From positions 71,178,001-71,242,000 of the forward strand of contig OZ076409.1 of the NCBI GenBank assembly GCA_964187785.1: DNA of 64,000 nt, given 5' to 3'. The DNA is from Amphiscolops sp. MND2022 (Eukaryota). Below, one piece after another: positions 1 through 38,472 of this stretch. The first letter of the stretch is position 1. Every line of letters starts with the position of its first letter. The position numbers and the translations under genes are program-made. The notes beneath the pieces were generated by a model. It had not been told where the DNA came from, did not search any database, and worked only from the letters and a program-made list of their open reading frames with translations.

Positions 1-1129
1 GAAAGGTCTGGTACTGGGCTTTCATTTTGGTCAGGTGAGCCCCTGTCGTCGCGCGCCCTCTCTTTCAGAATTTCAGTTTCTTTTTCGGTACTGCCGCCAC
101 GCGGCCATTCAGCAGTTCGGGGCTTGCAGTAATAACAAACAGGACATTATTGAGGTTTGTTGCACACGGACGTGTTGTGGAAGCGTATGTGGTATAATGC
201 TTAGGCCTTTCAAATCAATCTAAGTACCAATTAATTGTTGAAAAAAAAACTGTGCTAGAGAATATGGGCTACTGGCAGAAGGAATCCGAAAGTGAAAAAT
301 AGGTAGGCTGCTTCAAAGTACCACTAGGGTCATTAGGGTTAATGACTATCAACTTGTTTCTTGAAACCTTTCTTATTATAGGTTTTTATGAAATGCTGAA
401 AAAGATATAAACTGCAATGGTGAACAAAAGGAGTAGCATATTCAACGATAGCCCAAGACGACACCTTTCAGTGCCAATTTCATTGCGGTCCTTAGTCATG
501 AAAATTGAATGTTTTGAAAGACATTTGATGTTACTTTTATTCATTTTAGAGGCAAAAATAGAAAAGGTGTAATTACCCCTGTGACGGTTTGCTCTTCTGG
601 TATTCTGATTGCTTGGATTTGTCTGTTCAAGTGAGCTTCGAAAGTGATATTTTTAACATGGAAGGGTCCAGTGATATACACTGGGAAACCACAAATATTT
701 TATAGCTCCTTTTTTCTTAGCTCCTTCGTACCTTGATCCCTTCGACTAGAGGTATTCAATTCTTACAAGGAGCTACGTGGAGTTATTTATTAACAGTTGA
801 AGATATCAAGTAAGCTATTGTCTAGTATAAGTAGTAGGAAGCGTTTGCTATCGTGACTTGTCATTCAGTTCATTTGTGTAACTTGCAATTTATCATTAGG
901 TTATAATTCTTGGCCTAAAAAACTAGGCTTTGCACTACAATAGGGTAGAAAGTTTTTTTTTAATTTTTGGAAAATTTACTTGGAATGTTTCATGAATTGA
1001 CAGTTGTAGAATATTAGCGAGCGGCGAAAGACCCATGGGTCTGCTGCCATGTGTCACTTGTCTAATCAAATTCAAGTTAGAAACTTTTCCCTTCCAACGG
1101 TATGATCCCTCTTGTACTTTTGATACTTT

Positions 1130-1408
1130 TTAAACGCTTCTCAAGCACTCTTGGCTCTGAAATTTGCAACCATGCCTTATCCATTCAACTACCATCACGT
1201 CTCCAGAACCACTGCATGTTTTCCCACCGTGGAACCCCTCAAAACATTTCGGGGGCAAATGTCGTTGCCAGTAATTTAGCCTCTGAAGCTCCTCGAAAGG
1301 TTCCTCATTTATCCATTGACCGTCAACCCTCTTCCCGTTTATGCGACATAAGTTGAGAAATTCACCGTCGTCTTGTATACTTTTGGAAGTTCCTTGTTGA
1401 TTTAGCAT
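1130..1408 (-). pseudogene. Possible degraded C-type-lectin-like exon fragment
   Basis: The ORF contains INGKRVDGQW...LNYW..LP..C, loosely resembling the W-x-G...W...NW...P pattern of C-type lectin domains. Flanking frames contain stops. Pattern recognition only. Confidence 0.25.
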
Positions 1409-1562
1409 ACATTTCGTTCGATATTATCTCGATAGACTCTACCAGTCCATCTCGCCTAGTTGGGCCTCTAGAATTTTCTGATCTCATTTTCTTGAGATGA
1501 ATTGCTTCTATTTATCAGCCACTCTGAGTCCCATAGCCTGGGCCATTTATAACAACCTCTTA

Positions 1563-1578
1563 CTCTCTCTCTCTCTCT
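1563..1578. repeat. (CT)n microsatellite
   Basis: ctctctctctctctct run. Confidence 0.85.
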
Positions 1579-1960
1579 AGAGTTTGAAATTCCTTCTCCC
1601 AACAATATATCCATGTTACCGTAATCAGACATGTTATCCATTTCTCTAGACTTCTTTCTCTAGACCTCTAATTGAAGCCATAGAAAAGGTTAAAATGACC
1701 TGACCGACTAACAGCCCCGTTAGGCTTTTCAATGGACAAGGACAGGGGTTGGTATTGAATGTAAAATATCAGTTAAGGTATATAGTTAGGTCACTAGCTA
1801 GCACAGTCACTCCAAAGGGGCATCATTTTAATGTATAATTCCAAGTACATGTTATTTTTCATCAACAAATTATAGTAGACTAAATACCAACACCGACTAA
1901 TTGAATATTTGGACTAGACCATTCCAGCTTTTTATCTATGTAGCATCGCAACAATGAATA

Positions 1961-2467
1961 AACAAGACGGGAACGTCCAAAGTCGGCGCCATATATAAGG
2001 CTCATAAAGCGCAAGACTTCTTTTGAAAGCAAAACTTGAAAATTTTGATTTTTTTTTTTCAGAAAATGTCGCATAGTGCCAAAAAATGTAAAAGGGGGGA
2101 CCCTTTGGGGTTTATTAACATATATTCTGTTGGAAAATATAAAAAAACTCGAAAGGGGGACTGTTTTGAGACATTGAAAAATTTTCGAAAAAAGTCGCAC
2201 AATGCCGAAAAAAAACCAAAGAGGGGACCCTTGAGGCACGTCCGGTTTTGTAGGTTACGTTAAAAAAGTAAAAAATAAAAGGGGGGGACCCTTTTGCACT
2301 AATTTCTGCTGACCGGACTTGGCCTTATGGTAGTAGTTTTAGTAGTTTCGATTGTAAGAAAAGTGGACCAATCAGAGTTAGATTGTAGTCTGACGAAAAA
2401 AAAAGGAATTAAAAAAAACTAGCCACTGTAATAGTCGGGCACTTTTCACTGGGAAAGCGCCGACTAA
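1961..2467 (-). mobile_element. Non-autonomous Helentron/HINE (DINE-1-like) element
   Basis: Subterminal inverted repeats agtcggcgc (1981-1989) / gcgccgact (2457-2465). Hairpin tagtcgg...ccgacta at one end (2432-2466) and small stem-loop gacg-ggaa-cgtc next to aacaa at the other. Internal subrepeats gtcgca..(a/g)tgcc and gggggaccc. A similar terminus (aacaagacgggaacgtc) recurs at ~3472-3489. Confidence 0.55.
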
Positions 2468-2999
2468 ATAATGAATAAAGATCAAGCCGTCATTGACTAC
2501 AATGCCACTGACAGCTACGCTAGCTATCCTGAACAGGCAGATATTTGACGGCGCCTGTCTGCCTGTGAGTATAGTTGTCTTATCAAATAATGATTGATGC
2601 ATTTATACAAAAAATTTTACAGGTTTGAAAAAGCAAATTATACAACTGTTTTGAAAACTTTAGTTTGTAGTAAAGGAATGGTTCTGGGTAAGGCAGTGTG
2701 TCTTGCTTTGTCTATCGTGTTGGGGTCGCCATCACATGCGGCAGCCTGCGACAGATACAGCGCCAACGGTTGGAATAAAGCGAATTTTCGATCGAAACAA
2801 AAACAGCGAATTCGAGAAGTGTGTTATCATGATTCAAATTGAAAGAATCCGATTTTTGGCACTTGTTAGATGCGAACACTCGCTCTGTAGGACAATTTGG
2901 TTGCAGTTGTTCACGTTGAAAAGAATGGTTGTGTGACACCCTCGGAGCAAGAGCCGAACTTTGGGTACAGGTCTTTCAGACTTGGCAATAGATTATCGC

Positions 3000-3414
3000 T
3001 ATACTTGCAATAAGTGGAAGTTAGTCAAAGTTTTGACTAACTTACACCATGTTTATATGCATTCAAAACTCAGTGTTCATTTTAATTCCAATTCATACCA
3101 CAGCATCGTAAACCAGTCAAAGTAAACAATGATTCAATAAATAATTAGTTATTACTGAGCTCTACCGTGCATAGTACGTATAAACTGCATTCAATGCAAG
3201 TTGCACACGTGAACACGTGTGTTTCATCCACGCATTTACGTGCAAATAAAATACCTTGTAGCTTCTAATTAGTACAATTGATTGATCTGTCAACAGGTTT
3301 CCTATTTTAACAAAACATAATTTCAAAGCAGCCCTCATTAATAGTTGCCTAACATTTATTTTGGTCCCTGTCGTGAGCACAGTCACCGGAATGATTGGAT
3401 AACTTGTTATTTTG
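3000..3414 (+). repeat. Left arm of a ~420-bp inverted repeat pair
   Basis: Near-identical reverse complement of 8576-9003, e.g. ggtccctgtcgtgagcacagtcaccggaatgattggataacttgttattttg vs caaaataacaagttatccaatcattccggtgactgtgctcacgacagggacc. Confidence 0.9.
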
Positions 3415-6056
3415 TGTTCATTATTTATCAAGTGTAGACGCACTACACGCGACCCTGGCTCTACAGTAAAACAACAAGACGGGAACGTCTCGAATCGGTG
3501 CCCCGCTGAAAGCGCAGCAATGTATTTTTAAAATGCTCGGAGTCTGTGAAGTAGTCTCATTTCTGTAGCTGCTGTAATGAAAATAAGCCATTTTGTTGGT
3601 ATTTTTAGCTGAACAGAAACTACCTTTTAGCGTTTTAAAAATATATAAAGCGTTTTAAAAATCGAAATTTATGTTGATACAGCAAATATTGATATGTTGT
3701 CAATGGTTCTCGAGCAAAAATTGTTGATCAGTCTTTCTAACGAAAACGCATCAAACATGTTCTGCATTATCACTAATGAAACCTTTTCAACAAACGCTCA
3801 CCCAAAAACTGAAATCACCCAACTTTACTGTATTTCAACAGTAATGAAGATTCTATTGCATGCAACATCTCTAGATTTTTAAATCTTTATAGAGATGATA
3901 TAATCCGGGACAGCTGAAAACGTAAACTATTCTCTAATAAGATTGCACCATTACATAAAACATCTCAACAAACATTAAAAATTAAGAACCCGAGCTCTCC
4001 AATCAAGACACAAAACCAGCTAAATTGAGAAGCTTTCAAACGAAGTAAACTTCCTAAGCAAAATGCGAGTTGCAAATGGAATTCTAAAACTTTTATAAGA
4101 CTGATGTAAAACTGAGAAAACTTGGGAATACTGTTCTAAAAACAATCCAGGAACGGGCCAAGTTGGCACCCCGCTGAAGGCTCAGAAAAAGCGATACCAT
4201 TTGAATGAGCTCGAGTTCAATCATTGAAAAAAAATGTTTGTCAATCTCACAGTGACAAAAGCACCTTATGGGCACCCATGAGATTCGAAAAACACTTTTC
4301 ATTAAATAAAGACATTTTGAAGTTGTCAAAAGTCGCAGTGCCAAAAAAAACGAAAAAACCTTTGACCTAGTCTAATTTTCCAAACAACAAAAATCTTTTA
4401 GTTCCGCTCGAGATTCAAAACCCACAACCAGATTCTAGGTTGCGAAGCAGGCAGCCTAACCACGAGGCTTGGCCGTAAAGAAAGCCTCACAATCAAGGAA
4501 TTTTTATGGAATTATAAAATTTATAGAAAGTGGTCGCTACAGTTACAGCTAAAGAACAAACTTGCAACTATTTTGTGTAAGAATCTTGCATTTTCCAAAA
4601 AGCGCCTATTGAAAACGTTTAGTACCGCATACTTCAGTCTTTTCCTTCATTTCCAATATTTTTCTAGCGCAAAGTAGTTCGAACAATTAAAGCAACGAGT
4701 GTCAGAGCAAACGCTGATTCCTTTATCCAGGCTCCTAATTTCAGCGTTAAACTGCAAGCTGAGTGACAATTTTTGCTAATTTCTAGTTTTGCATTTCGAC
4801 TTAATAAAGGGTTAATTTTTGCTCCACAGATACTCCAAGCTTTTTCAACACACTCTGCAAGTAGTTAAGTAGTTCCAAAAGAAAACTCAAAATTGTCTGA
4901 CCAGCAAGCTATTTCATTAGATTCCAGGACTAAACTAGTACAATTACAAATATTGAAAGTTCAATCCCTTACAAAATTTAGAAGTTCCAGGAGTTGAAAA
5001 CTGAATGTATCTCTATCAGGTCAAAATCTCTTTTATGAGTGAAAATAGGAGTATTCTCTTAACCGCATTACTCAGAACCAGGGTTGTAACAAAAAACAGC
5101 TGCGCTTTTAAGCTTGACTCCAAATTAGTTCAAAATTAGTTTTGAACTGGAAGGAAAGTAGAATTCATTTCTCAAAGGAAAATTTCTGTCCAAATTTTGC
5201 TACTTCGTTTTTAGTATGTTATCGATTGTGTAAATCGACAAAAAGCGCCCCCATTCTATAGTCATAAGCGCCTCGCTAAGTTTTGAACTGCTTTCATCGT
5301 CTCTAATTAAATCTAATTGAAGATGTTCAAACAAAATAATTCACTGGTAATGCCATGTTTAACATTTTCACATTTAACGAATTCCAATTGAAATCGACTT
5401 GAATCGTTAATATTGGCAAATCTGTCAATAAAATGTAAATTATTTTCCGTCCATATTTCATATGGGAAAGAAAAAAATGAATCAGCCGATTTTTTCCCCA
5501 TAATTTTCCCCAAATGTTCGAAATTTATACCTAACTGAAGGGTTTTACCCATAGAATTCAACGTAAAAACCGTTCAACAAGTGAAACATTCGTTGTCCAG
5601 TAGTAGGCTCTTCGAAAGAGATAAATGCAATTTTTCAATTTAAAAAAGCTTCAAATCGACACCCGAAAAGCATAAAAACTTTTACAAACAAAAAACACAA
5701 ACTTTTACAAATTTTAGCGATTTTATGCAATTTGTCAAACATTCCAAAAATTTGGTGAATTAAAACGTTTAAACGAATTCGTTGTCCAATAGGCTTTTTG
5801 GGGATATAAAAGCAAATTCGTAACAGAAAATGGCAAAAAAGACCCAAAATAGTCGAAAAATTATTGTGAAAATATGAAAAAGTTAGTGACATAGTGCAAC
5901 AATTGAATTCGTTGTGGAGTAGGCTTTTTAATAGATGAATGCAGAAGTTTTCATTAAAAATATGCCTTAGTTTGACACCAAAAAAGTAGAAAAATTGAAA
6001 TTTTCTAAGCTTGAAAACATTCAAAGATGAAGAGACTAGCTATGCAGTGTTTTGTG

Positions 6057-6073
6057 GAGAGAGAGAGAGAGAG
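6057..6073. repeat. (GA)n microsatellite
   Basis: gagagagagagagagag run. Confidence 0.8.
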
Positions 6074-8195
6074 TTGCTGTTTTGCTTCAAATACATTTCA
6101 ATGACTTCAATGAGTGGAGTAAAAATTATTTTCAACGTTTTTATGCAATTCTTGTGGAAAAATTTGAATCGTTTTGATCATAATCTGAAAAGGTGTTCAA
6201 AACAATAGCAGTCGACATCCACTTGTTTTTTTGAAGACATATTTGCAAATCGGTGTTTGAAAAGAAAACTCAAATGACCTAAAAATTGTCAAAACATCGA
6301 AATTTTCGTTTTCGACAATTTCAGTGATTGTTTGTGGAAAGCTTCTTGAGTTTAACGGTTTTAAAAGTACAGAATACTTATCAAAGTATTCAATACGCCT
6401 TCAAAAGGAAAACTTGATAGCTTTCTAGGTAGAACAATATCTCAATGGCCCCAATCCCAAATGTTTTTCGAATTTCGTGTAATTTTAGAACTTTGCGAAA
6501 TTTCGTATGCTAGAAGAATGAAAACTTTCAACAGCAAACAACTTCGTTGTACAGTAGGCTTTTTGGAACTGAATCGCAGTCTCGCGCTAGAAAAGACACA
6601 AAATAATCTCATAAAATTTTTCCAATCTTATGGACACTTTCAAATATAAATAAGAGAAATTGTGTATTTGAGAAATTTCAAAAAGGTGTAAACGATATAA
6701 TTGGGTGTGCATTAAATTTTCAAAAAACTGATTTTGCAGTTTTGTATGTAGAAAAGTACCTCAGAATGACCATAAGTGATTGAAAAATCCAAAAGTTTTA
6801 GACGTTTTTTGCGAAGTTTGGTGAAATTTTTGAGCTACTTAATAGATTAGATTTTAGATTGGTGTAAAGATTCAATTTTTTCCTTTATAAAAATTTTTTC
6901 ACTTGAAACTTCTTGACATTTTCATCGCTACTCTTGAGACTCGTAATTATGTCGTTGCTAGAACAGTTCGGACGGAAAATATCCCGCTGGTCAGCGGGCG
7001 CCTTGTTTCTTAAAGCAGCTATTAGTGAATACGCTGTTTTAAAATGGACACTTGTTTTATTCAACTGGAGTTAGGAACTGGAGTCAGCAAGTTGGCGGAG
7101 GAAAAGAATGAGCAACTTCCATGTAGCCTTTGATAGGGGCGCTTCTGACTGTGTATTTTGGGCGCCTTTGACTAGGGCGCTTTTGTCTGGTAACTGTTAT
7201 TGATGTATCCATGGAGCGTTCCTGTAAGTTATTATTCTAGTAAAGAGGTCATTTCTATTGATATCTATTCTCATCAGAAACTACGGACTGCAAAACAAAA
7301 TCAAACCTTCCATTCATACTGACAATGTTGAGTTTTGCATGTTTCGGTTAAATTCGACAGTATTATTACCGAAAGTAAAAATATTTTATATTGCTAAAAC
7401 AATTTTGAACCAGTTTGATTCAACTGTCGCGGCATTTCAGATTCGAAATTTTAATTTGCGAAATTACTTCGGAAGAAATTCTAACAATGTTCCGGTGCCT
7501 CTTGCTTGGGGTTGATAAATTGCGCAATTTTACTGAGAGTGGTTTCTTTAGCGTTATCGCCTTCAATTCCTTTGGCCCATCGAGCGATGGTGTTTGAATT
7601 TCATATGACAGGCCACAAGTTGACCAACAGTGGATTAGCTGTTTACAGAAACATAGAAACCTTTTCATGCTTGAAACTATGTATGATTCACCCGCAATGC
7701 ATTTCCATAAATTGGAACCGAAAAGGATTTTGTCAGCTAAACTCTCAGGATAATTATTCGTTTAAGAGTATTCTCCAAATCGATCCCAATTTCAACTTTT
7801 CTGGAATTTCTATTCTATTGCACACAACATTCTAACACGGCATAAATGTAAAAAAACTACAAAAAGTCTCTAAATTAACATGTGAATGAAGTTTTACAGA
7901 ATTTACGGCTAGTATCGTCACCACAATAAATTTTTAAAAATGTAATCATAAGGTTAGCTATAAAAAGTTTGTTAGTTTTCAATGTTAATTTGTTCCATCA
8001 TTTGATCAACGTGTATAATGTCTCCTCTGTCGTGCTGGGGTTCATGTAAAACAGTATAAGACCTAGTATCGTCGTTAATTTTTTCTCCAAACAACTGCTT
8101 CCACGAAAAGTTGATACTTCTGCATTATGGGAATAAAAATTCAACAGCTGACGTTTAAAATTTTTTCATGATTTTATATCCAGATGTTACAATTT

Positions 8196-8483
8196 TCAGG
8201 TTTGGCTGATATCACAAATTGAACAGCGATTTCTGTTTATGACTGGACTGTTGCGCAATCGCCCGACAGGGCAATAATTTATCAAAACTTTTTGATCCCT
8301 TTCTGCGTTTGGGAACTTTGGAGCCCATAGTGATTCTGGGAAGACAACTTTCTCTTCTCGCAAATTCTCCCATTTTGAAGTAGAACTGGAGCCCTGTGGC
8401 TTTTTAATACCGAGCCAGCTTCGCTCGCAATTAGGTATTTTCTCACAAAGCAGCTTCAACTGAATGTTACTAAGGTTGTACAA
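8196..8483 (-). CDS. C-type-lectin-like domain fragment (C-terminal half; probable exon or pseudo-exon)
   Basis: The translation SWLGIKK...KWENL...LWAPKFPN...LINY...CSICDI* follows the CTLD order WIG / W / W-x-x-x-x-PN / terminal IC. No ATG start, so it is likely a partial exon. Confidence 0.45.
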   Translation of the reverse strand: MYNLSNIQLKLLCEKIPNCERSWLGIKKPQGSSSTSKWENLREEKVVFPESLWAPKFPNAERDQKVLINYCPVGRLRNSPVINRNRCSICDISQT

Positions 8484-8575
8484 CCGTTAGACTATTTGTT
8501 ACAACTTTTCTTGATGTGCTCACGACAGGGATCAAAATAGATCCTTGCCAATACCCTGGCTCAAAATACCCAGAC

Positions 8576-9003
8576 CAAAATAACAAGTTATCCAATCATT
8601 CCGGTGACTGTGCTCACGACAGGGACCAAAATTAAAATTAGTTAGGCAACTCAGGCTATTAATGAGGACTGCTTTGAAATTATGTTTTGTCAAAATAGGA
8701 AACCTGTTGACAGATCAATCAATTGTACTAATTAGAAGCTACAAGGTATTTTATTTGCACGTAAATGCGTGGATGAAACACACGTGTTCACGTGTGCAAC
8801 TTGCATGGAATGCAGTTTATACGTACTATGCACGGTAGAGCTCAGTAATGATAACTAATTATTTATTGAATCATTGTTTACTTTGACTGGTTTATGATGC
8901 TGTGGTATGAATTAGAATTAAAATGAACACTGAGTTTTGAATGCATATAAACATGGTGTAAGTTAGTCAAAACTTTGACCACATTCCACTTTTCGGAAGT
9001 ATA
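8576..9003 (-). repeat. Right arm of the ~420-bp inverted repeat pair
   Basis: Reverse complement of 3000-3414; ends ...ggaagta-ta. Confidence 0.9.
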
Positions 9004-9014
9004 GGAGTCCCTCA

Positions 9015-9245
9015 ATTTGCAAAAAGTGGAAGTTAGTCAACGTTTTGACTGACTTACGAAAAAGAGTATTTTTGGACTAACTTCCGCTTTTTTCTAATTA
9101 CGTGTTTTGACTAACTTACACAATTTTCCATTACGCGCGTTGATTTTGCTACACCGTTGAAGCATAGACCGTCTTGACTAACTTACGCTGAATGACCATT
9201 TTACCATTTTACTCAGATTACGCAGCTTGACTGACAGCAGCTTAC
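9015..9245 (+). repeat. Cluster of ttgact(a/g)acttac subrepeats related to the inverted-repeat terminus
   Basis: ttgcaaaaagtggaagttagtcaacgttttgactgacttac matches 3005-3045 in direct orientation, followed by further (t/g)gactaactt(a/c)c copies at ~9075, 9108 and 9175. Confidence 0.7.
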
Positions 9246-9264
9246 CGGTACGTGTATCGTAATG

Positions 9265-10968
9265 TAACTTTTTTCCTGTTGGTTTAAAACTTTAGGACCC
9301 TGCTAAAAGTTTCTTGACCATGTTGCAGGGGCTCCGGAGGTCCAAACCAAATTTTTCTAGCTTGAAGCTATCTCCAAGTACCCCCCCGCCCAAAACGTTA
9401 TTTTTCCGGAAACGCAGGTTTTTGACCCGGAAGGAGTCGTCTGAGCGCGGGGTCGTTAGGTGATGTTTTGGGGACGGCCTTGAGACGAAGTGGGGGACAT
9501 GTAGTTTGTCAACCTCAGTTTACCCCCCGGACAGGAAATGACCGTTATATGAGCGGGAAAATTGCCCCCCTCCACGTTTTACCGCTATTTCCGGTGTGAA
9601 GGAGTGGGAGTAGCGCGTCGGGTGCCATATATCAAAAGTAGGTTCAGACAAGGACCTATCGGAAACATGTGGTTTGGGACCCCCTGGGCCAACCCGTTAG
9701 CGGGAAATGGGGCTTCCGCCTCCTTTTTTTACTGCTAAAACCGTAAAATGGGCATTGAGGGGTAAATATCTCGTGAACGCGTGGAGCAATCGTGTCCATC
9801 ACTACTACAAGGTTTCATACCCATGATATGGTGCCTTCAGGGGGGCAAACAGATTTCCGCTATCTATCACCGTTACCGACTTGGCCCCCCAGCCTAACCG
9901 CTATGTGACCGGAAATGTCACTTTTTGAGCCCAAAGGGTCGGTCCCAGCCGGGGAACGTTAGGTAACTTATTGTAGTACTCAATGAGACGAGTTGGGGGA
10001 TATAGTTTCAGTCACCCCCCGTTACCCCTTGGGACCGGAAATGACCGTTATGTGGGTAAAATTGCAATTTTTATACTTTTTCAAGTGTATTTAGGTGCGG
10101 AAGGCGTGGTAATAGGTGCTTGGACACTATATGAGGTAAGGGAGGACGTGAGGCGAGCATTCGGAAATAACCGTTATGTTGACCCTAAAGTCCCCCTGGT
10201 ACCGTAAACGACCGGAAATGGTCAAATTTTGTGTCTATTGGGTACAAATGTTTAGTATTTTGTAGATAAAAGTATCTATTAGGTGTTTCGACGGTCTGCA
10301 ATAGTGAACATAGTCATGGAACTTTGTAGGGGGTAACGGGGTATATAGCACCGGAAGTCCAAACCGTTGGACACAGGATAGGTTTTTGGTTTGAAAATGT
10401 CTTTCGGCGTACTTTTGTCGACTATTATGGACTATTATTAAAAATTAAAGTTCTTCCATATAGTTTCAGAGACTCCGAAACCTCAACCAACATAACCGTT
10501 ACATTTTGATAGCCTTTCAAGTTGGCCTGGTGTCAACTTGGAAGCGCTATCCTTCTGAAATCGTTAATCAAGTGTGTTTTTGAGAATGTTTGTATTACTT
10601 TAGAATCAATTAGAGCTTCAAGAAAAGTTTGCCAACGACAAAAACTATGTCGTGATGATTCCATTATTAGAATATTAGTTAACAAAATGTTGATAAAGTT
10701 GATTTTTTACATTTCAAAAGTGTCCCAAATGCCAGAAAACCTCTTTACCAAACAAATGGTATTGATTGGATTGTATATAACAGCTAATAAAAGTTCAAAT
10801 TGAATATTACGTTTATTATGCAAGCTGAAATATCATATTATAGTTTCATTAACGTCAACGCCACATACTTTACATCAACGCCCACCGTCTGTGGGCATGC
10901 CGAGGCATGCCCTTCGACGACGTATACCAAATTCTTCCAACACAACACCCCCGAGCGCGTTAGCCTAG
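9265..10968 (+). repeat. Family A cassette, 5'-truncated by ~270 bp (first unit of the array)
   Basis: Starts at taacttttttcctgttggtttaaaac, which lies at offset ~270 in the full unit 18535-20509. Confidence 0.9.
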
Positions 10969-10971
10969 GTG
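10855..10971 (+). other. Conserved cassette 3' end (example copy): TCAACGCC direct repeats, GGGCATGC-CGAG-GCATGCCC stem-loop, tail, CTAG^GTG junction
   Basis: Hairpin at 10893-10912, junction at 10965-10971; an equivalent block closes every unit. Confidence 0.9.
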
Positions 10972-12962
10972 CGGGGGGGTAACCCCAACTTTTTTCTTGG
11001 AGGAATCGGGTAGGGTCCTGATTCCGAGTTCAGTGCCGCCAGCTATCGTTAAAAACCTATACCTTTTAAACCCGATCTCGAGAACTAACCACGCCCCTTC
11101 TTTAATTTTTTGGCCCCCACTCACTTTTTGATAGTAGATCGCCCCCCACTGGGTTCCAAGTTGGGCAAAAATGGAGGTCATGGGTAACGGGGACCGTTAA
11201 GGGGTAACTCAGGGGGTAAAATTTATTTTTTGCGTCATATCTTTTCCCCCCGTGGATTTAGCGCTTCCGGTCAGCAGACAAAACCTCATGTACGTGATAC
11301 GGGGCCTCCATAGGTCCAAACAAAATTTTTCTATCATGCACCGTTACGGACTTGGCCCCCCGGCCCAACCGTTATTTTACCGGAAATTGCACTTTTTGAC
11401 CGGGAAGGAGTCGTCTGAGCACGGAGTCGTTTGGTAATGTTTTGTAGTGTATCTGGAGACGTGTTGGGGGACATGTAGTTTGCCGGCCCCAGTTTACCCC
11501 CCGGACGGGAAATGACCGTTATGTGAGTTTTAAAATTACCCCCCTTCAATTTTCCCCGTTATTTCCGGTGTGAAGGAGTGGGAGTAGCGCGTCGGGTGCC
11601 ATATATCAAAAGTAGGTTTAGACGAGGACCAACCGGAAACATGTGGTTTGGGACCCCCTGACCCAACCCGTTAGCCGTTATAAGGGTGATCGCCTCCTTT
11701 TTTTACACTCAAAACCGGAAAACGGGTATTGAGGGGTAAATATCTCGTGAACGCGTGGAGCAATCGTGTCCATCACTACTACAAGGTTTCATACCCATGA
11801 TATGGTGCCTTCAGGGGGGCAAACAGATTACCGCTATCTATCACCGTTACGGACTTGGCCCCCCAGCCCAACCGCTATGTGACCGGAAATGTCACTTTTT
11901 GAGCCCAAAGGGTCGGTCCCAGCCTGGGAACGTTAGGTAACTTATTGTAGTACTCATTGAGACGAGTTGGGGGACATAGTTTCAGTCACCCCCCGTTACC
12001 CCTTAGGACCGGAAATGACCGTTATGTGGGTAAATTGCCATTTTTGTACAATTTGGAGGGCATTTAGATGCGGAAGGAGTGGTAATAGGTGCTTGGACAC
12101 TATATGATGTAGAAGAGGACGTGATGCGAGCATTCGAAACTAACCGTTATGTTGACCCCTAAGTCCCCCTGGTACCGTAAATGACCGGAAATGGTCTAAT
12201 TTTGTGTTTATTGGGTACAAATGTTTGGTATTTTATGGATTAAAGTACATGGAAGGTGTTTCAAAGGCCTCCAGAAGTGAACATCGTCATGAAACCTTGT
12301 GGGGGGTAACGGTATATAACACCGGAAGTCCAAACTGTTGGCCACAGAATAGGTTTTTTGGTTTCAAAATGTCTTTAGGCGTAGTTTTATGGGTTGAATC
12401 GTCATAATATCAACTATTACGGACTTTTTTCGGAAATAAAATTTTTTCACATTAGTTTCAGAGACCTCCAATGCTTCAGTCAACATAACCGTTACATTTT
12501 GATAGCCTTTCAAGTTGGCCTGGTGTCAACTTGGAAGGGCTATCCTTCTAAAATCGTTAATCAAGAGTGTTTTTGGGTAGGTATATGTTGCATTAGTACC
12601 AATTAGAGCTTCATCAACAGTTTGCCAACGGCAAAAACGATGTCGTGATAATTCCGTTATAAGAATATTAATTAACAAATTGTTTACAAAGTTGATTTTT
12701 TCCATTCGAAATGTGTCCTAATGCCACCAAATTGAATAAAATAATAAATGGTATTGACTAAAACTAAATAACATTGAAAAAGAAGATCAACATTTTTAAT
12801 AGGTCTCATTATGGAAGCTGAAACCTCACGTTTTAACTTAATTAACGTCAACGCCACATATTTTTCATCAACGTCCACCGTCTGTGGGCATGCCGAGGCA
12901 TGCCCTTCGACGACGTATACCAAACAAACTCCATATCTACTCCCGATTGCGGTAGCAGCTAG
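10969..12962 (+). repeat. Family A' cassette (1994 bp)
   Basis: Starts GTGCGGGGGGGTAACCCC; body near-identical to 56031-58025. Confidence 0.9.
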
Positions 12963-14955
12963 GTGGGCGGTAGGTTTCCCGTAGTCAAAAAAAAATTGCA
13001 GGCCGGGGTAGGGGCCCTGGCCGAGGCAAAATACCATAGAAAAGGTACCAAATTATGTGAGTTTAGAAAATTGAGCCATACAAATTCTCTGAAAATTGCT
13101 GTGTGTACCCTATCGCCCAATCTAAGAACTTTGTCCTGCTGACGTTTTGCTCTCCAAATGTTACTAATATGACTTTTTGAAAAATTTATCTCTGGTTTTT
13201 CATCAAAAATAGTGATTTTGGCAATTTTTGTGAAATATCTCTGATTGCATTAATTTTTGGACGTTGACTGTGAAACAAGCTCGGAACCATCATTTCGTGA
13301 CCATGGCAATGCACTAAACACAAAAGATGTAGAGTTTTTAAATTTTTTGAAAATTTGACATTTTTAAATTTTTTTCACTACTATCAGTACCATATATGTC
13401 AAAATAACCTCAGAAAAATTTTTTTATTTTATTTAATTTAGAATCCTTGCTATCCATGGTTTCTGTTAGTATCTACTCGCTCCCAGAGACTCAACAGTTA
13501 GCATCGAATCTGAAATTAAAAATTTTTTCGAGGTCATAGGTGTTTCACAAGGATTTCACAACATAGTCTCGTTTTACAAATAGGTCATTTACAACATCAT
13601 ATTTTCATCGAGGCATGTCGGATATAGTCTTATTGCTCACGAACGGTCCTACTGGCAACGTAATAACCATTTATTGAAATATAAAGTTTTAAAAAAATCT
13701 TTTCACATGTTCTTCAAACATTTTTCAGACATTCGGAACTTAACTTAGAAAAATTTCGTCTCAAAAACCCATTTTTCGTCAGGTCGAAATTTGAAATTCA
13801 GCTTTTGAAGCACAAATATGCACTCTGACGTAACCAGTAGGGCCAATGATACTCAACAACACCATTGAGACTGGTATCAGTCGCTCCAAAAACATATGAG
13901 CCGTGATAAGACGTTTTTTCAACAATACTGTTCAATTGATGTAAACATCGCGGAAGCCTTGGATTACAGTGAAAGTTGATTTGAACAAAAATTTACTCTT
14001 TTTTGTCAATCACTATGTAGACAGAATGCGTAGGGTAAGTTTCAGCACTAATATGAAGATTTTGAAGGAATCGGGTTGCTCAAGGCGTGGTATGAGACAC
14101 TTTTTTCTCATATACTAGTGTTTTTCAAAACCTTTTCGTTAAATATCTCGAAAAGCAAACATTAAAAAATACTTTCTGATATCTAATTTAATTCCTAGAA
14201 TATAAATGAATCATGTGGTTGATCAGAAACTCTCTACTTTAATGTTTCAAGAAAAAAATCCCTTCCCATGTTTTATATCTGTAGCAGTAAAAAAAGTAGA
14301 CGCTAAAAAATACGCTATTTTGCTAAGATTGAATTGCAATTGTTTAGCTTTAAAACTCTTTTAATACTTCTAACGCCACCTTAAGGACTCAAGATGATTG
14401 AAAATGTCAATCACAATGCTGACATGTAGCCTTTCTACGATCCTGGCTGGACAGATTTTGGTTATTTTTCAAGTACCTGTTAACTGAATCTCGTGATAGC
14501 CTTCTAAGTTGACCTTCTGCGTCAACTTGAGAAGGCTATCACTAAAATAAACTAAATTCTGATTTGTTTGTTTGTTCCTAACGTCTTTTGGTACGATCGT
14601 CTTACGGTTAGTTGGTTAAACCAGGTCGCTTATACTTCCACAATTTTCGACCACCGTCCGTGTATTCGGTTCACACGACTTTACATTTTCAGTCGTTTGT
14701 TTTCGATAACTATCACAATGTACTGCCATTAGCGCCAAATTCATACTAGTACTTGGTTGGTTGAAATACTTAAACAACTGTTTCCATAGTTATTCGCGGT
14801 GATGGTACAATCCGCGCGCCTACATACCTACGGCGTCTTGTCACTACAACGCCACATAGGGAAACAACGCCCATAGTCCGTAGGCATGCCGAGGCATGCC
14901 TTTCGACGACGCGCGCCAAATCTATGCGCGCCCGCACTTGTGCGGTAGCTGCTAG
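12963..14955 (+). repeat. Family B cassette (1993 bp, singleton, AT-rich body)
   Basis: Starts GTGGGCGG. Unique body, but it has the 5' hairpin (13001-13022), the gatagcc hairpin (14493-14542) and a core hairpin variant (14882-14901). Confidence 0.85.
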
Positions 14956-16343
14956 GTGGTTGGGGCGGTCCCCAGAACGCACAAGGAGGCGCGGGGAGGG
15001 TCCTGCGCCGACGTAGAATAATTTCATATAATACTAGTATCCTACATGGGTGTTTTAGAGGCGATTTTGGAATCTAACCGTAGGATTTGGATAATTTTTT
15101 GCATGCGGCCATAACTCAAAATTCTAAGAACTTTTTCCTACTGTCATTTTCCCCGCAAATTGTTTTTTGTTGACTTATGGCCGAAAAACCGGAAATAACG
15201 TCCTTTTTAGACGTTATATCCGAAGTGTCGTCATAACTTTTTTCCAGGGCATGCTAGCGTTCTCGTTCACTTTTACACTTAGTTGCAGCATCTCAAAATA
15301 CAACTGGTGGAAAATTTTGGTTGCATTCGGATCACCCCCCACCGAGATAGAAGGGTTCCCCCCTCCAGTTTTACCCCCCAAATTTGCGAAAAAGCCAATT
15401 TTGAGCATGAAGACGAGGATTTAGCGTACCCGCACTCTTCTGATGTTTTGTTGTACGTATTGAGGTCAATCTGACCACAAGTGTGGTTTTCACCCCCAAC
15501 CCCCCCTGGGACCGGAAATGACACTTTTTTGTGTTTTTTGGCAGAATTTAGCCTTTTTCATTATTAGGCAGTCGTTTTAGGGACTCCTAGCAGGATATCG
15601 AAATTGAAATACAACCTGATCACAACCCAGTGACAACATGTTGGCCACTTGGAGGTATCATCATGACCGGAAGTGGGGTCAACCCCCCTTTTTGTGACCG
15701 CTTTTTGACCTTGTGCACCAAAATGCCAACATCTTGAGGCCTAATGAGGCATTCAAATCTGTACAAAGATAAAATGTTAGACAACCGAAGTCCCGGAAGA
15801 TCTTTAGCATATACCGGAAGTTACCCCCCATGACCGGAAGTTACCCAATGTGACCGGAAATGGTCCAAAAATTAATGTAAAGTTGAATTTTTCACTATTC
15901 CAAGACCACTTAATTGAAACTTTTCAATCTCAAAACTAGCGTACTGGCTTGTTTTGCTGAATTTATGGAAATTGATGAGCTCTATTACCCCCGATAGCCT
16001 TCGAAGTTGACCTTGCGTCAACTTTGGAGGCTATCGATACTGAAAATGAACAAGAAAGTACATTGTTGCCCTCGGTTTTTTCCCGTTGTTTTTCCTCAAA
16101 CTTTCTTGAGACATATACATGGCCGTTAGTTGAAATCAATATTTAGCCCATGTTATAGCTGGAGCAGCGAAGCGTTACACAGACTAGTGTGGTTTTGAAA
16201 TTACATTATTTAAATTAACAACTGACCGTCTTAGTCAACTCCACACATTCATACCAACGCCCACCGTCTGTGGGCATGCCGAGGCATGCCCTTCGACGAC
16301 GTATGACGAATCCACTCCAACGACACCCGCAGTCCTCAGCTAG
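14956..16343 (+). repeat. Family C cassette (1388 bp)
   Basis: Starts GTGGTTGGGGCGG; near-identical to 59429-60817, including the tail. Confidence 0.9.
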
Positions 16344-18534
16344 GTGGAGGTTATTTTATAATAATTAAAGTGTTTTTTTCCGGAGTTTGTGGCTTTGGAA
16401 AAAACAAAAGGCGAGAAATTGGGCACTCCGGGCTGAACCGTATACACTCAAAATTCGCCCAATATTTATACGATCTCGAAACCCAGCCGTACGATTTGGC
16501 TGAAAATTTGCATGCGGCTAAAGAATCAGATTCTAAGAATTATTTCCTGCTGACAATTTTTTGAAATTTTTGTGTACGTTTCCCCCCCGCCCCCTAAAGG
16601 GGTCAATTTTCCCCAATTTTGCACTTATGAGTCAAATTCTCAAAACTGGTGGATCTGAGCGCATTCCCGACGGGGACAACTTTTAACAATCGCTCTTCAG
16701 TAGACCATTTTGAATTTTTACTTTGGTGGTACGTTCACCCCCCAAGGAGGAAATGGCGTTTTTGTGACTTCCGGTCGAGACTTTTTTCACCCAAAAAATA
16801 GAAATAAGCCAGTTTTGAGCAGGAAGGAGTGGATTTAAAGTGTCTGTACCCTGCTAAAAATTTGTTGGGCTTGTAGCGATATATCTCATACCAAGTCTGG
16901 TTTTCACCCCCAAACCCCCCTCGAGACCAAAATTCACCCAAACGTTTTACCTCTATTTGTGGTTTTTTCACAAAATGTCGTCATTTCCATCGGCAAAGAT
17001 TTGAATTAGGGGCTCCTAATAGGGTACCAAAGTTCAAGTACACTTGGAGTGCAACTAAGTGACCCTTTTTGGGCCTCTCGTGTGTTCGGCAATGACCGGA
17101 AGTGGTATTAACCCCCCTTTTTTGACGTTTGTTGACCTTGAGACTCGTGCTTAGATGACGTTTATGTCGCGCAAATCCTACAAACCAGTATTAGGATGAC
17201 ATGCTAGCCAACTAGAGAGCAATAAGGGAAACTATACTATACCGGAAGTAACCCCCTCTTGACCGGAAGTTGTCATTTTTGACCGGAAATGGTCCAAAAC
17301 CTAGCGTGAAAGCAGTTTTTCATTGCTTTTAAAGTCAACTTATTACTTTTTTCACTCTGCGCGAGCTTGCCTTCAGGTTCGTTAGTGTTGCCCGTGCACA
17401 CTGCAACAAATATACATCTGTAACATTTTCGCTATAATATCGTCGGAGAGAGAAATAACGGGTTTTTGGGATTTTTTTCAAAAATATTAGTCTTTATCTG
17501 TCATTTTTACCCAACGTCGTTATTGAACAGTAGAACCATAGGGGTTAGTCTTTGCCCAAATATATGCCTAACACAAGCACTTGTCCCATTGGTTGCAGTT
17601 TGAGCGTTCTAGCTTTGCCTGGTCACAAGTTAGGGGACTTGAAAAACTTTCAAAATCATTTCCGAAATTTTTTTCTATACGTCACGTCTCCCAAAGTTAA
17701 GAAACTTCCTCACAACTAGGACTGCAAGTGAAAGCATGTGGTAAGACCTATAAATGGAGAGAAAAACTCCGTTTAGAACGTCTCTTTATCGTAACGTGAC
17801 GTTAAGAGATGTTGCTTTGAATGTGAGTTTGATAATGCGTCGAGAAGTAAAAGTGTGAAAATGGAACCTTTGTCTCGATAAATACTCATCGCAATACTTG
17901 CGATGAACCCCAATTACCCTCAGTTTCAGTTGCTTAGTACATCAACGTCCTCCAAGGACCTTTATCTATTTTGAAAAGTGTCGAAATCATTATTAAAATC
18001 AGTTATCAAGAAACACTTGAGTACATTCTCATCTCTCCCCATCGGGTGAGATGAGAATGTTCTTGCTAAAAGCCAGGTACTACGGCCCCCTTTTGTTTTG
18101 ATGCGATGCATTCTCTGCTTTAGCACATAGATATTTTATTTCGCCTCATTGTTTGTATACTCTCTGACTTGTTGTTATAAATCTCTCGTCATTACTTTAC
18201 ATAAATATACAACCGAAAATCATCATCGTCACGCCACATACATTTAGACGCCCACCATTCCGTAGGTATGTCGAGGCATACCTTTCGATTACGAATGTCA
18301 AAACGCAAACGCGATAAAAAGTGATGAATGTCTGAAACAGTGACAAACACTTTTGACTATTTGACATATGGTAGGTTTTAATATGGGAGTTACACATCAC
18401 TGACATTTCACATCATTCCAGCTGACGCCCACATACCAACAACAACGCCCACCGTCCGTGGGCATGCCGAGGCATGCCCTTCGACGACGTATGCCAATTT
18501 CTGTAAATCTACACCCAATTGCGGTAGCGGCTAG
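16344..18534 (+). repeat. Family D cassette (2191 bp, composite, duplicated core hairpin)
   Basis: Starts GTGGAGGTTAT; similar to 20510-22686 at both ends. Confidence 0.85.
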
Positions 18535-20509
18535 GTGCGGGGGGGTAACCCCTACAAAGATATTGGAGGATTCGGGTAGGGTCCTGAATCCGAGTTCAGT
18601 GCTGCCAGCTATCGTTAAGGGATTTTAGAAAATTTTGCCGATCTCGTGATCTAACCGTAGGATTTTAAAGTTGGAGCGGCCCCCACCAGATTTTCCAAAG
18701 TTATTCGCCCCCCACCGGGTTCCAGCGTGATTGAAATATTTTGACGGGGTACACGGGCGACCGTTAGGGGTCATTTTGGGGGTAAAATTTATATCCGGTC
18801 GCATAACTTTTTTCCTGTTGGTTTAAAACTTTGGGACCCTGCTAAAAGTTTCTTGACCGTGTTGCAGTGGCTCCGGATGTCCAAACCAAATTTTTCTATC
18901 TTGAAGCTATCTCCAAGTACCCCCCCGCCCAAACCGTTATTTTTCCGGAAACGCAGGTTTTTGACCCGGAAGGAGTCGTCTGAGCGCGGGGTCGTTAGGT
19001 GATGTATTGGGGACGGCCTTGAGACGAAGCGGGGGACATGTAGTTTGCCGACCCCAGTTTACCCCCCGGACGGGAAATGACCGTTATTTGAGCGGGAAAA
19101 ATGCCCCCCTCCACGTTTTACCGCTATTTCCGGTGTGAAGGAGTGGGAGTAGCGCGTCGGGTGCCATATATCAAAAGTAGGTTTAGACAAGGACCTGTCA
19201 GAAACATGTGGTTTGGGACCCCCTGGTCCAACCCGTTAGCAGGAAATGGGGCTTCCGCCTCCTTTTTTTACTGCTAAAACCGTAAAATGTGCATTGAGGG
19301 GTAAATATCTCGTGAACGCGTGGAGCAATCGTGTCCATCACTACTACAAGGTTTCATACCCATGATATGGTGCCTTCAGGGGGGCAAACAGATTTCCGCT
19401 ATCTATCACCGTTACCGACTTGGCCCCCCAGCCTAACCGCTATGTGACCGGAAATGTCACTTTTTGAGCCCAAAGGGTCGGTCCCACCCAGGGAACGTTA
19501 GGTAACTTATTGTAGTACTCAATGAGACGAGTTGGGGGACATAGTTTCAGTCACCCTCCGTTACCCCTTGGGACCGGAAATGACCGTTATGTGGGTAAAT
19601 TTGCAAGTTTTATACTTTTTCAAGTGTATTTAGGTGCGGAAGGAGTGGTAATAGGTGCTTGGACACTATATGAAGGAAGGGAGGACGTGAGGCGAGCTTT
19701 CGAAAATAACCGTTATGTTGACCCCAAAGTCCCCCTGGTACCGGAAGTGACCCGTAATGGTCAAATGTCGTGTTTTTAGGGTACAAATGTTTGGTGTTTT
19801 ATGGATAACAGTGCCTATTAGGTGTTTCGACGGTCTGCAGTCGTGAACATAGTCATGAAACCTTGTGGGGGGTAACGGTATATAGCACCGGAAGTCCAAA
19901 CCGTTGGAGACTGGATAAGTTTTTTGGTTTTAAAATGTCTTTCGGCCTACTTTTGTCGACTATTGTGGACTATTTTTCGAAAATAAAGTTTTTCCATATA
20001 GTTTCAGAGACTCCGAAACCTCAACCAACATAACCGTTACTTTATGATAGCCTTTCAAGTTGGCCTGGTGTCAACTTGGAAGGGCTATCCTTCAAAAATC
20101 ATTAATCCAGTGTGTTTTTGAGTATGCTTGTTTTACTTTAGAATCAATTAGAGCTTCGAGAAAAGATTGCCAACGACAAAAACTATGTCGTGATGATTCC
20201 GTTATTAGAATAATAGTTACCAAAATGTTGATAAAGTTGATTTTTTACATTTCAAATATGTCCTAAATGCCAGAAAACCTCTTTACCAAACAAATGGTAT
20301 TGACTGAATTGTATATAGCAGCTAATAAAAGTTCAAATTGAATATTACGTTTCATTATGCAAGCTGAAATGTCATATTATAGTTTAATTACCGTCAACGC
20401 CACATACTTTACATCAACGCCCACCGTCCGTAGGCATGCCGAGGCATGCCTTTCGACGACGTATACCAAATTCCACCCACACAACACCCCCGAGCGCGGT
20501 AGCAGCTAG
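18535..20509 (+). repeat. Family A cassette (1975 bp)
   Basis: GTGCGGGGGGG start, A body, CTAG end. Confidence 0.9.
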
Positions 20510-22686
20510 GTGGAGGTTATTATATATCAATTAAAGTGTTTTTTTCCGGAGTTTGTGGCTTTGGAAAAAACAAAAGGCGAGAAATTGGGCACTCCAGGCT
20601 GAACCTAAAAACACCCTAAAATTGGCCCGATTTTTTTACGATCTCGAAACCCAGCCGTACGATTTGGCTGAAATTTTGCATGTGGCTCCTAATCAATGAG
20701 TAATGAAAAAGTGTAGGAGTGACTTTTCCTGAAAAAATTGTTTTTGTTGCACTTTTTGCGCAATTTTTGACCGATTGTTGCGTTTTTTATGTCACTTTTG
20801 ACTTTTCAGGCAAAAAACTCATGGATGCTTTGATCCTAGCGCATCAAGTGTTTCGACCAAAAAGTTGCAGCATGTTCTTTTACGTATGTTGAGAAAATTT
20901 GGTTGCCATCGTATTACCCCCCACTGAGATAGAGGGGAACTTCCGGTGGAATTTATGACCCTAAAAACGAGGACCTCCTAAATTTCAGCATGAAGCGGTA
21001 GTTTTAGCGTGCTCATACCCTGCTGAAACTTTGTTGGCCATAATGAGATAGTCATGATATCATGTGTTCAGTTCAACCCCCATCACCCCCTGGACCGGAA
21101 ATGAACTTTTTTGTGCACTATCATACCGGAAGTCTCCAATTTCACCGTTAAGCAGTCCTTGTACGAGCAACTACCAGGACATCAAAATTGAAAAACCACC
21201 TGAGGTCAACATAGTGACTACGTGTTGTCCAGTCATAGGTTCCGCTATGACCGGAAATGGGGTCAAAAGCCCCTATTTTGGTTGTTTTTTACAATTTTAC
21301 TAGTGTTTGGTCCACATTCAAGTCGCGTAAGTGAATTGAATCAGTGTGAGCAAAAACTGTATGTTCACTGCGTAGACGTAACTGACACTGGCAGATACCG
21401 GAAGTAACCCCCCGTGACCGGAAGTTGTCAGTTTCGACCGGAAATGGTCCAAAATGTAGCGTAAAACTAGTTTTTTACTGCTTTTTAAAGTCAACTTATT
21501 ACTTTTTCAATCTCCGCGAGCTTGTAATCAGGTTCGTTTTTGTTACCCGTGCACTTTGCAACAAATATACATCTGTAAAAGTTTCTCTATAATATCGTCG
21601 GATAGAGAAATAACGTGTTTTTGGGACTTTTTTTCAAAAATATTAGACTATATCTGTCATTTTTACTCAAAGTTTTTCAACTGTACAACCACAGTATTTA
21701 GTCTCTGCCCAAATTTTTGCCTAACAAAACTATTTGGCCCATTGGCTTTAGTTTGAGCGTTCCAGCTTTGCGTGATCATAAGCTAAAGGACTTGAAAAAT
21801 TTTCAAACTTTTTTCAAAAAAAACTTCTCACATTCATATCTCCCAAAGTGAAGAAACTTCCACACAATTAGGATTGCAAGTGGATGCACGTGGCAAGCCC
21901 TATAATTGAAGAGAAAAATGCCGCATAGAACGTCTCTTTATCGTAACTTGACGTTAACGTATGGTGCTTTGAATGAGAGCTTGATAAGAGGTCGAGAAGT
22001 CAAAGTGTGTAAATGGAACGTATTTCTCGTCGAAAACTCACCGGAATTCATGCAATGAACCCCAATTGTTCTAAATTGCAGTTGCCTACTGCAACAACGT
22101 CTTTCTGGTACATTTACCCATTTTCATAAGTGTCAAAATTATTTTTGAATTCAGTTAGCAAGAAACACTTGAGTACATTTTCATCTCTCCCAAGCGGGTG
22201 AGATGAGAATGTTCTTGCTAAAAGCCAGGTACTACGTCCCACTTTTGTTTTAATGCGACACATCCTCTGCTTTAGCACATAGATAGTTTATTTTGCCTGA
22301 TTTTTTGGATACTCTCTGACTTGTTATTATAAACTTCTCGTCATTACTTTACATGAATTTACAACCATAAAGCGTTATCGTCAACTGCACATACATTTAG
22401 ACGCCCACCATTCCGTAGGTATGTCGAGGCATACCTTTCGATTTCGTATGTCAAAACGCAAACGCGATAAAAAGTGCTGAAATTCTGAAACAGTGATAAA
22501 CAATTCTGACAATTTGACATATGGTAGGTTTTTATATGGAACTTAGACATCACTGACATTTCACAACATTCCAGCTGACGCCCACATACCAACATCAACG
22601 CCCACCGTCCGTGGGCATGCCGAGGCATGCCCTTCGACGACTTATGCCAGTTATTTATATCTACACCCAATTGCGGTAGCCGCTAG
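20510..22686 (+). repeat. Family D cassette (2177 bp)
   Basis: GTGGAGGTTAT start, E-like middle, duplicated core hairpin at 22417-22436. Confidence 0.85.
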
Positions 22687-28600: not shown

Positions 28601-28608
28601 GCAGCTAG
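22687..28608 (+). repeat. Three family A cassettes (1971, 1976, 1975 bp)
   Basis: Internal junctions at 24657/24658 and 26633/26634. Confidence 0.9.
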
Positions 28609-37600: not shown

Positions 37601-38472
37601 TTTTTCTAACGGTCCAGCTTATCTTTGCCATTTTTTCGAAAATGCACTCGCCTAAAGGCCTCCCCTGGCCGGTTTTATTCCCAGCAAAACCATTTGGCCC
37701 TAAATACGGAGTTTCAGCGTTCCAGCATTCCCGGGCGAAAAGTTGTGGGACTTAGAAAAATTCAAAAATTTTCAAAAAAAAATTTTCCGTTATTTGGGCC
37801 CCCAAAGTGGGGGAAAAGACCCCCCAACCAGTAAAGCAAGTAAATGCATGTGGAAAGCCCTTGTTTAGAGGAGAAAAATGGCGTTTAGAACGTCTTTTTA
37901 TCTTGGCTCAACGTTGACTTATGACGTTTTGAAGGTGATGTTTGGAGGTGTAAAGCACGAGAATAGTAAACGTTATGAGTATTTATCTGATCTGAAAGCC
38001 ATTGAGATGCAATATGGTTTGCTCAAAACGTAATTCATTGCAGTTTGGCAGTCAATCATCACCCTTTGTTGTCGTTTGACATACTTTTTTGTTGTTATAA
38101 TAAAAAATTTTGTGTATTTATTCATTTTTTTCTCATCAAATAACTTGAAACAGTTGAGTACATTCCATCCCCCCCTTCCGGGGGAGATGAGAATGTACTC
38201 GCAAAAAGCCCCGAACTACGGCCCTTACCTTCCCGAGCTACGCAGTATAAGGATTACATATTGGTTCCGACATTTTCATAGAGTTATATCTTGGTAATCT
38301 GTCTGGATATGCACAAAAATCAGCACGTGCCTTTTAATACCAAGTTGCTCATAACGACAATTATTTTATATCAACGCCCCCATATTTATCAACGCCCCCC
38401 GTCCGTGGGCATGCCGAGGCATGCCCTTCGACGACCCGCACCAAAATATACGTCGAGCGCGGTAGCAGCTAG
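34634..38472 (+). repeat. Three family F cassettes (1261, 1289, 1289 bp)
   Basis: Start GTGCCGGGATTT; junctions at 35894/35895 and 37183/37184. Confidence 0.9.

Follow-up and report, generated by a model that had tools for sequence, protein, structure and literature searches.

A stem-loop in the right-end module of mixed head-to-tail arrays, probably built by a divergent Helitron-like lineage

Features of the locus

The window, that is, the whole stretch of 64,000 nucleotides analysed here, corresponds to C1:71178001-71242000 in the genome of Amphiscolops sp. MND2022. To the right of an unrelated insertion it consists of short elements that follow one another head to tail (Table 1), and the array runs on in both directions within a region of about 6 Mb of contig C1. 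The units in the window contain no long open reading frame (the longest has 139 aa), and some of their body groups share no more than roughly 80 nt, at the right end. A tandem-repeat finder gave only four short arrays in the window, and a simple satellite was rejected accordingly. The unrelated insertion reaches its full length of about 12.2 kb together with C1:71175020-71178000 and harbours a pair of inverted repeats of about 400 bp, near 3015-3400 and 8560-8990. Between positions 9587 and 63969, almost entirely in array units and in copies that are not independent of one another, ACCGGAART, which we take to be an ETS-like motif, occurs 106 times compared to 1.7 expected, and ACCGTTA, presumably a Myb-like motif, 124 times compared to 10.

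Table 1. Positions of the features within the window (1 is the first nucleotide)
Feature	Position	Strand	Remarks
Right part of unrelated insertion of ~12.2 kb	1..9264	.	short terminal inverted repeats; splits first 2-kb unit at its nt 270
Mixed head-to-tail array of non-autonomous elements	9265..64000	+	32 complete units, 1.26-2.19 kb, four body groups
Right-end module, ~56 nt around hairpin	10876..10931	+	
Reported stem-loop (G..C allele)	10893..10912	+	core of right-end module; 19/20 match to p53 response-element consensus
Head-to-tail junction CTAG^GTG	10965..10971	+	right terminus of one element, left terminus of next
Example of 2-kb non-autonomous family	10969..12962	+	rich in ETS-like and Myb-like motifs
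Left-end hairpin	11002..11025	+	conserved loop region GGG(T/G)AGGG(T/C/A)CC; family-specific covarying stem
Hairpin, A..T allele	14882..14901 (also 20432, 50721)	+	
Relic copy AGGTATGT..GCATACCT, non-terminal	18264..18283	+	2.18-kb family
Second relic copy	22417..22436	+	2.18-kb family
Non-autonomous unit of 1.27 kb	31389..32660	+	left part 85% identical over 666 nt to RepHel element C1:24008187-23994513

Over the ~6 Mb of contig C1, more than 40 families are stacked in one orientation. All eight sampled stretches of 10 kb between 70.8 and 75.3 Mb show + strand junctions while those at 70.2, 76.6 and 77.0 Mb show none, which places the edges of the array near 70.45 and 76.5 Mb in a region that was sampled rather than read continuously. 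Further arrays are found at 3.5, 24, 29.5 and 38 Mb of the same contig and on contigs C2, C3, C5, C7, C8, C9 and C10. Inverted meeting points of arrays across assembly gaps, at C1041:30001-70000 and C1:23977198-23979717, may be assembly artefacts.

The right-end stem-loop

The sequence GGGCATGC-CGAG-GCATGCCC is indeed present where it had been reported, and the 20-mer hairpin has 35 plus-strand copies in the window: 30 of the G..C form, three of the A..T form and two of a form AGGTATGT..GCATACCT that is confined, in the window, to the two relic positions of Table 1. The 1.07-Gb genome holds about 4,950 copies in total; the exact 24-mer form is found 4,273 times compared to zero for a reversed control, and the hairpin folds better than its shuffled versions (z = -3.5). 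No family reached the gathering score when the window was scanned with Rfam. The original prediction had placed the hairpin about 35-60 nt upstream of CTAG. This applies to 33 of the 35 window copies, which lie 34-54 nt before CTAG^GTG (the caret marks the boundary), but not to the two AGGTATGT copies, found at a distance of about 246 nt; across right ends the hairpin lies 34-61 nt from the end. The suggestion that cgtc...gacg flanks might lengthen the stem is borne out by 70 distinct right ends, in which stem-extending GTC and GAC flanks are almost invariant.

The same 70 right ends are about 88% alike in the module, compared to 44% in the body upstream and 54% in the tip downstream. Since stem and loop are as nearly invariant as the flanks, the module is held as a sequence, with a single covarying pair. 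It had further been claimed that the hairpin is conserved in all families. In fact it is present at 197 of the 252 sampled junctions and absent from the other 55; the junctions without it include whole families that have no strong right-end hairpin, and one of the families without it is autonomous, with copies that encode identical proteins on three contigs. The right hairpin is thus dispensable. Many tips contain a second, family-specific hairpin some 6-12 nt before CTAG, the canonical Helitron distance (e.g., C1:3490757-3490790), and others have none. This closer hairpin could be the real terminator.

Both arms of the stem had been said to change together, which stands for the outer pair only. 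Genome-wide, terminal copies comprise 4,273 G-C (counted with a pattern that lacks the first base), 677 A-T, 10 G-T and a single A-C, whereas independence of the two positions predicts about 590 copies for either mixed form. The remaining pairs show no covariation in terminal copies, and five of the eight stem pairs are invariant in an alignment of 15 window copies. Flank-anchored capture in 864 kb of array DNA yielded 207 loci, 172 of them G..C and 26 A..T, the nine others being four singleton terminal variants and five relic copies. The G-T copies represent at least four haplotypes in six examined, and their wobbles place the structure on the + strand. At a site 14 nt downstream two states occur, each together with either allele (7, 6, 49 and 84 for the four combinations), which makes linkage alone a weak explanation. 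Alternative sources are palindrome-correcting template switching, which could account for the near-absence of A-C, and C-to-T damage on single strands, which could account for the excess of G-T.

The form AGGTATGT..GCATACCT, formerly regarded as a second compensated terminal form, turned out to be a decaying internal duplicate that sits about 197 nt upstream of a normal hairpin copy in one family of 2.18 kb. Its sister relics in this family are AGGTATGC..GTATGCCT with two G-T wobbles, AGGCAGAG..GCATGCTT with three broken stem pairs and AGACATGC..CCATGTTT with one. The CGAG loop, supposedly never changed, is altered in two of these relic copies.

Element ends and target site

The elements run from GTG to CT(A/G)G. 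All 33 junctions in the window read CTAG^GTG, the reverse-complement junction does not occur there, and the 252 sampled junctions divide into 235 with CTAG and 17 with CTGG; a few elements end in CTTG. The tip that precedes CTAG is linked more closely to its own element (MI of 3.72 bits; 2.0 when shuffled) than to the next one (2.52 bits; 1.96 when shuffled). An empty site in a SINE reads ...CTAGCTAG^ATCTG, and the filled site has GTG...CTAG at the same point, after the host CTAG. Target duplication is absent from this one empty/filled pair, in which the exact cut is ambiguous because 4-6 nt are common to element end and target. The reverse reading, with the element on the - strand as A^TC...CTAG, is not compatible with the empty site and was rejected.

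Host insertions are found at CT(A/T/G)G^(A/T/G)T. In 49 non-redundant cases, retrieved by searches that excluded G, the host flank after the right end was AT in 37 and TT in eight; GT also occurs. When host-flanked left ends were located from right ends or array edges, without requiring a motif, eight out of ten were preceded by CTAG or CTTG. Two host-flanked left ends without CT(A/T)G, L066 and L069, speak against this target model. Left ends preceded by CTTG were found 37 times, 18 of the 30 examined having no element upstream, and nine of 15 extended loci that start with CTTG are already mini-arrays, with another element directly after the first. Anything but G after a right end is rare, with 35, 16 and 19 matches to three patterns; the pattern from module to end followed by A or T has only 16 matches in the genome. 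Outside arrays many right ends have no matching left end, which bears on the question of which end is the origin. A solo element of 1.27 kb (L015, C1:37447611-37448870) lies inside an LTR retroelement with CTTG at both boundaries.

The left-end hairpin

Among 48 distinct left ends, chosen solely by the presence of the upstream module at the junction, 45 have a stem that holds the conserved loop region of Table 1 or something close to it, in most cases 37-47 nt from the left terminus. In 38 families the arms fold at -8.7 kcal/mol with their own partner, compared to -6.1 +/- 0.3 with swapped ones (0 of 20,000 permutations), in a test that removes kinship among families only in part. An ungapped column-pairing test of the left hairpin gave no signal since bulges shift the register, and arm swapping was used instead. 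The structure that truly covaries across families is the left hairpin, not the reported right one. It folds better on the + strand in 33 of 39 cases, with 36 G-T pairs on this strand and two on the other. This bias fits the + strand as the peeled strand and the left end as what Rep reads, although RNA folding would give the same bias. According to the portion of PMC10288648 considered here, reading of hairpins is general in HUH enzymes.

Autonomous elements and their proteins

A unit of 13.7 kb at C1:24008187-23994513 encodes a protein of 2,373 aa with Helitron_like_N, PIF1 and GIY-YIG matches. The left part of this element is the one related to a window unit (Table 1), and its right end has no hairpin; minisatellites of about 75 bp lie between its ORFs. 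The transposase matches PF14214 and PF05970 in Pfam and contains the HxH and YxxxY motifs, i.e., a Rep of the HUH type with two Tyr and a fused Pif1 helicase, as in the Helitron-like superfamily. More generally, autonomous array members encode a Rep-Pif1 transposase (RepHel) of 2,100-2,600 aa, often with a C-terminal GIY-YIG domain, as well as an RPA-like protein. The Rep region has 126 matches in the genome at 31-100% identity (best exon-sized matches); over 50 of them lie in open frames of more than 2,100 aa, and the 33 at C1:70.5-76.5 Mb are all on the + strand. Autonomous elements of several clades, some of them with the module and others lacking it, are flanked by CTAG^GTG junctions. An integron-like or tyrosine-recombinase system was dropped once RepHel genes had turned up between junctions. 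Several of those in arrays carry the right hairpin, and the module-bearing ones are scattered over a transposase tree that covers this lineage only.

The second, downstream ORF is conserved in 12 of 13 aligned frames, the remaining one being non-homologous and dropped. Its structural model (pLDDT 81) matches RPA, CST and RADX at E-values of 5e-6 to 1e-3 with low TM-scores, and Atlas leads agree with an RPA/CST OB-domain fold; the protein is predicted to fold like these OB domains. An autonomous element contains a third ORF of 222 aa (L008:7362-8027, - strand) that has no Pfam match and resembles an SGNH hydrolase by eye only.

Relatives of the transposase comprise 484 representative proteins at E <= 0.001, one of them from hagfish. 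GIY-YIG was detected in 14 of 20 long relatives scanned, and DUF6570 in none of 33 proteins scanned. The distance from EFQ to HxH (motif II) is seven or nine residues in 120 of the 121 long proteins with this pattern, near-duplicates included, while the canonical spacing is five. The match to Helraiser is limited to the helicase part (E 2.4e-6). Some members of the clade (P0016, P0024, P0030, P0042, P0044 and P0084) have an N-terminal OTU protease domain.

Assembly of the arrays and alternative explanations

Inside 194 short units the hexamer CTDG^DT occurs 231 times, about 1.2 per unit, and a single internal left end was found in 219 units; an internal insertion at CTAG or CTGG would appear as a unit of odd length, and unit lengths cluster at family sizes. 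Array junctions are thus used far more than the same hexamer within units, from which we infer that junctions are targeted, and their recognition seems the simplest reading of how the arrays are assembled. It is quite improbable that hexamer and local chromatin alone direct insertion and that arrays accumulate since insertions elsewhere are purged. CTAG^GT is a good target hexamer by itself, and both solo and nested insertions exist, as do insertions within units at CTTG (L224, for which the remainder was found, and L200, L202, L203, L206 and L209, without remainder). However, the near-disuse of internal hexamers is not what this explanation predicts, and the sampled host DNA is full of other repeats that are tolerated. 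We also consider it improbable that the arrays are satellite-like, i.e., rolling-circle concatemers with unequal exchange in which end swapping and gene conversion have spread the module as neutral sequence. Tandem Helitron arrays are described in the portions considered of PMC5876387 and PMC5148889, only two hairpin alleles exist with the module dispersed over the RepHel tree, and neighbours of the same family are in excess (53 of 219, compared to 39.7 +/- 4.2 in a within-array shuffle), indicating a contribution of tandem duplication or local bursts to the growth of arrays. Yet neighbours often share nothing but the ~80-nt end, the 252 junctions fall into 158 distinct types (with 44 left-end clusters) and few shared blocks, only three alignments having two junctions in common, and mixed mini-arrays are seen at fresh host sites. 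Moreover, the module is conserved while the co-inherited tip is not (88% and 54%). A search for block copying of three-unit mini-arrays gave no full-length second copy in 18 scored of 3,146 candidates, which is weak evidence.

Transposon-carried p53 response elements are known, and the 20-mer could be a candidate binding site, in double-stranded DNA, for a host protein of the p53 family. The hairpin would then be a by-product of the symmetry of two RRRCATGYYY half-sites without spacer, which the elements would use for activation linked to germline or damage or for tethering to the arrays. The host encodes a p53-family DNA-binding domain (139.5 bits) with intact NRRP and EVRICACPSRDR motifs, which we assume to contact DNA from the roles of the human residues. 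The 20-mer is invariant even though Rep regions are only 31-43% identical, as would suit one shared host protein, and the units are also rich in the ETS-like and Myb-like motifs. Both alleles agree at 19 of 20 positions with two RRRCWWGYYY half-sites, the consensus given in the part of PMC7498329 considered, and the background has one such window in 79 kb. Such a site, however, predicts neither that positions 1 and 20 are coupled nor that stem-extending GTC/GAC flanks are invariant; in one autonomous element a half-site core is damaged while pairing is kept as G-T, and in motif-less families of the arrays the best p53 match has two to five mismatches. Judged from sequence, a p53-type site is possible, if doubtful, and is the chief rival to a role in termination. 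The p53 family itself is represented by about 20 tandem, mostly stop-containing fragments of the DNA-binding domain at C2:2.33-2.36 Mb and by a second locus on C26.

A probable model and its significance

The stem-loop is probably the core of a right-end module shared by a divergent, Helitron-like rolling-circle lineage, the arrays likely arising by insertion at CTRG^GTG junctions and the hairpin likely serving as an optional + strand helper of termination. What survives of the original prediction is the non-canonical Helitron-type end, given the GTG...CTAG termini and the autonomous RepHel elements within arrays, and what falls is compensation in all families. Under the junction-insertion model, RepHel would nick CTRG^GTG and peel the + strand, which would be closed into a circle at the next CTRG and then joined to a target with CT(A/T/G)G at its end. 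The preferred landing site would be the left end of a resident element, with its GTG and hairpin, so that arrays would gain single units successively without change of orientation. The right hairpin likely folds on the displaced + strand, where it would offer optional help to termination; since it is kept in both sequence and shape, a protein likely reads it. The likeliest role of the reported hairpin, at about even odds, is that of such an optional + strand stem-loop, read by sequence and shape and aiding termination as in Helraiser. For Helraiser, the part of PMC5876387 considered describes the left end as essential and the right hairpin as a dispensable terminator. Roles as p53-type site and in termination can coexist.

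A bolder proposal, which we think rather unlikely, is that the elements constitute a third widespread Helitron-like superfamily (Rep-Pif1-GIY-YIG) whose own junction serves at the same time as origin, as terminator and as landing pad. One self-built cassette array would be shared by dozens of families and by several transposases that split deeply. The left hairpin of the neighbour would end replication and receive the next copy, and a p53-type site at the right end would couple the array to germline signalling of the host.

The right hairpin alone would be ordinary; the interest lies in the surrounding system. If junction targeting holds, this would be a eukaryotic HUH transposase directed to a defined and structured site rather than to almost any place. 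Such targeting would also explain how mobile elements build gene-free megabase domains, and could be of interest where DNA is to be integrated site-specifically. The lineage is widespread and fails the TC...CTRR and inverted-repeat rules of annotation tools.

Comparison with known systems

The features compared are those given in the portions of the cited papers considered here. HLE1 elements such as Helraiser have in common with the present ones a Rep and Pif1 transposase, a right end CTRR (matched by CTAG or CTGG at all 252 junctions), a subterminal hairpin that can be lost, a downstream RPA-like gene, absence of target duplication and head-to-tail junctions (PMC5876387, PMC11417382). HLE1 differs in its left end TC and A^T target, compared to GTG and CT(A/T/G)G^(A/T/G)T here, in which the present elements depart from the HLE1 definition (PMC11417382), and in its hairpin, located 10-12 nt from the right end compared to 34-61 nt for the reported one; some tips here have a nearer hairpin and others none. 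A near-universal left hairpin, a C-terminal GIY-YIG domain and megabase arrays of mixed families further distinguish our elements from Helraiser as described.

HLE2 (Helitron2, Helentron, proto-Helentron and Fusarium FoHeli) resembles them in hairpins at both ends with compensatory changes, the left-end hairpin being present here and some HLE2 groups having only this one, and in inserting behind a tetranucleotide, which in Chlamydomonas is TTTT; a single HLE2 family, from a moss, has been found with a GIY-YIG domain (PMC3627910, PMC5148889, PMC11417382). The asymmetric terminal inverted repeats described for HLE2 are absent here (219 units score 6.68 of 10 to their own right end and 6.73 to others), as are the T^T target, the DUF6570 marker (33 proteins) and an AP endonuclease.

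The third-clade Helitrons of Paramecium likewise fall outside HLE1 and HLE2 and have very long ORFs, target-specific and strictly oriented clusters, element ends made of target letters and compensatory right-end stem-loops (PMC13085455). Unlike ours, they target telomeric repeats and have CCAA ends, and the main text of that paper does not mention GIY. Of the systems compared, this clade comes closest to a precedent for such targeted and oriented clusters, a likeness in described features. IS91 and Replitrons, HUH elements too, insert in a specific orientation next to a short target (a tetranucleotide for IS91) and have a Rep that reads hairpins (PMC10288648); in contrast to the present elements both lack a fused helicase, Replitrons are Y1, and the portion considered describes no junction-targeted mixed arrays. 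The p53 response elements of transposons resemble the 20-mer in having two decamers as half-sites, each with a CATG core, that adjoin without a spacer (PMC7498329). A fixed subterminal position and paired outer bases are features of the present 20-mer, not of such sites.

In the main texts of the open-access literature we found no description of a GIY-YIG RepHel clade with GTG...CTRG ends or of junction-targeted mixed arrays, though Repbase or the unclassified clusters of HELIANO may hold this clade. The lineage works like a Helitron and is set apart by feature definitions, as given in the portions considered of PMC11417382 and PMC3627910, from HLE1 (left end, target) and from HLE2 (inverted repeats, target, DUF6570). 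What is new is thus a Helitron-like variant with a likely self-targeting mechanism.
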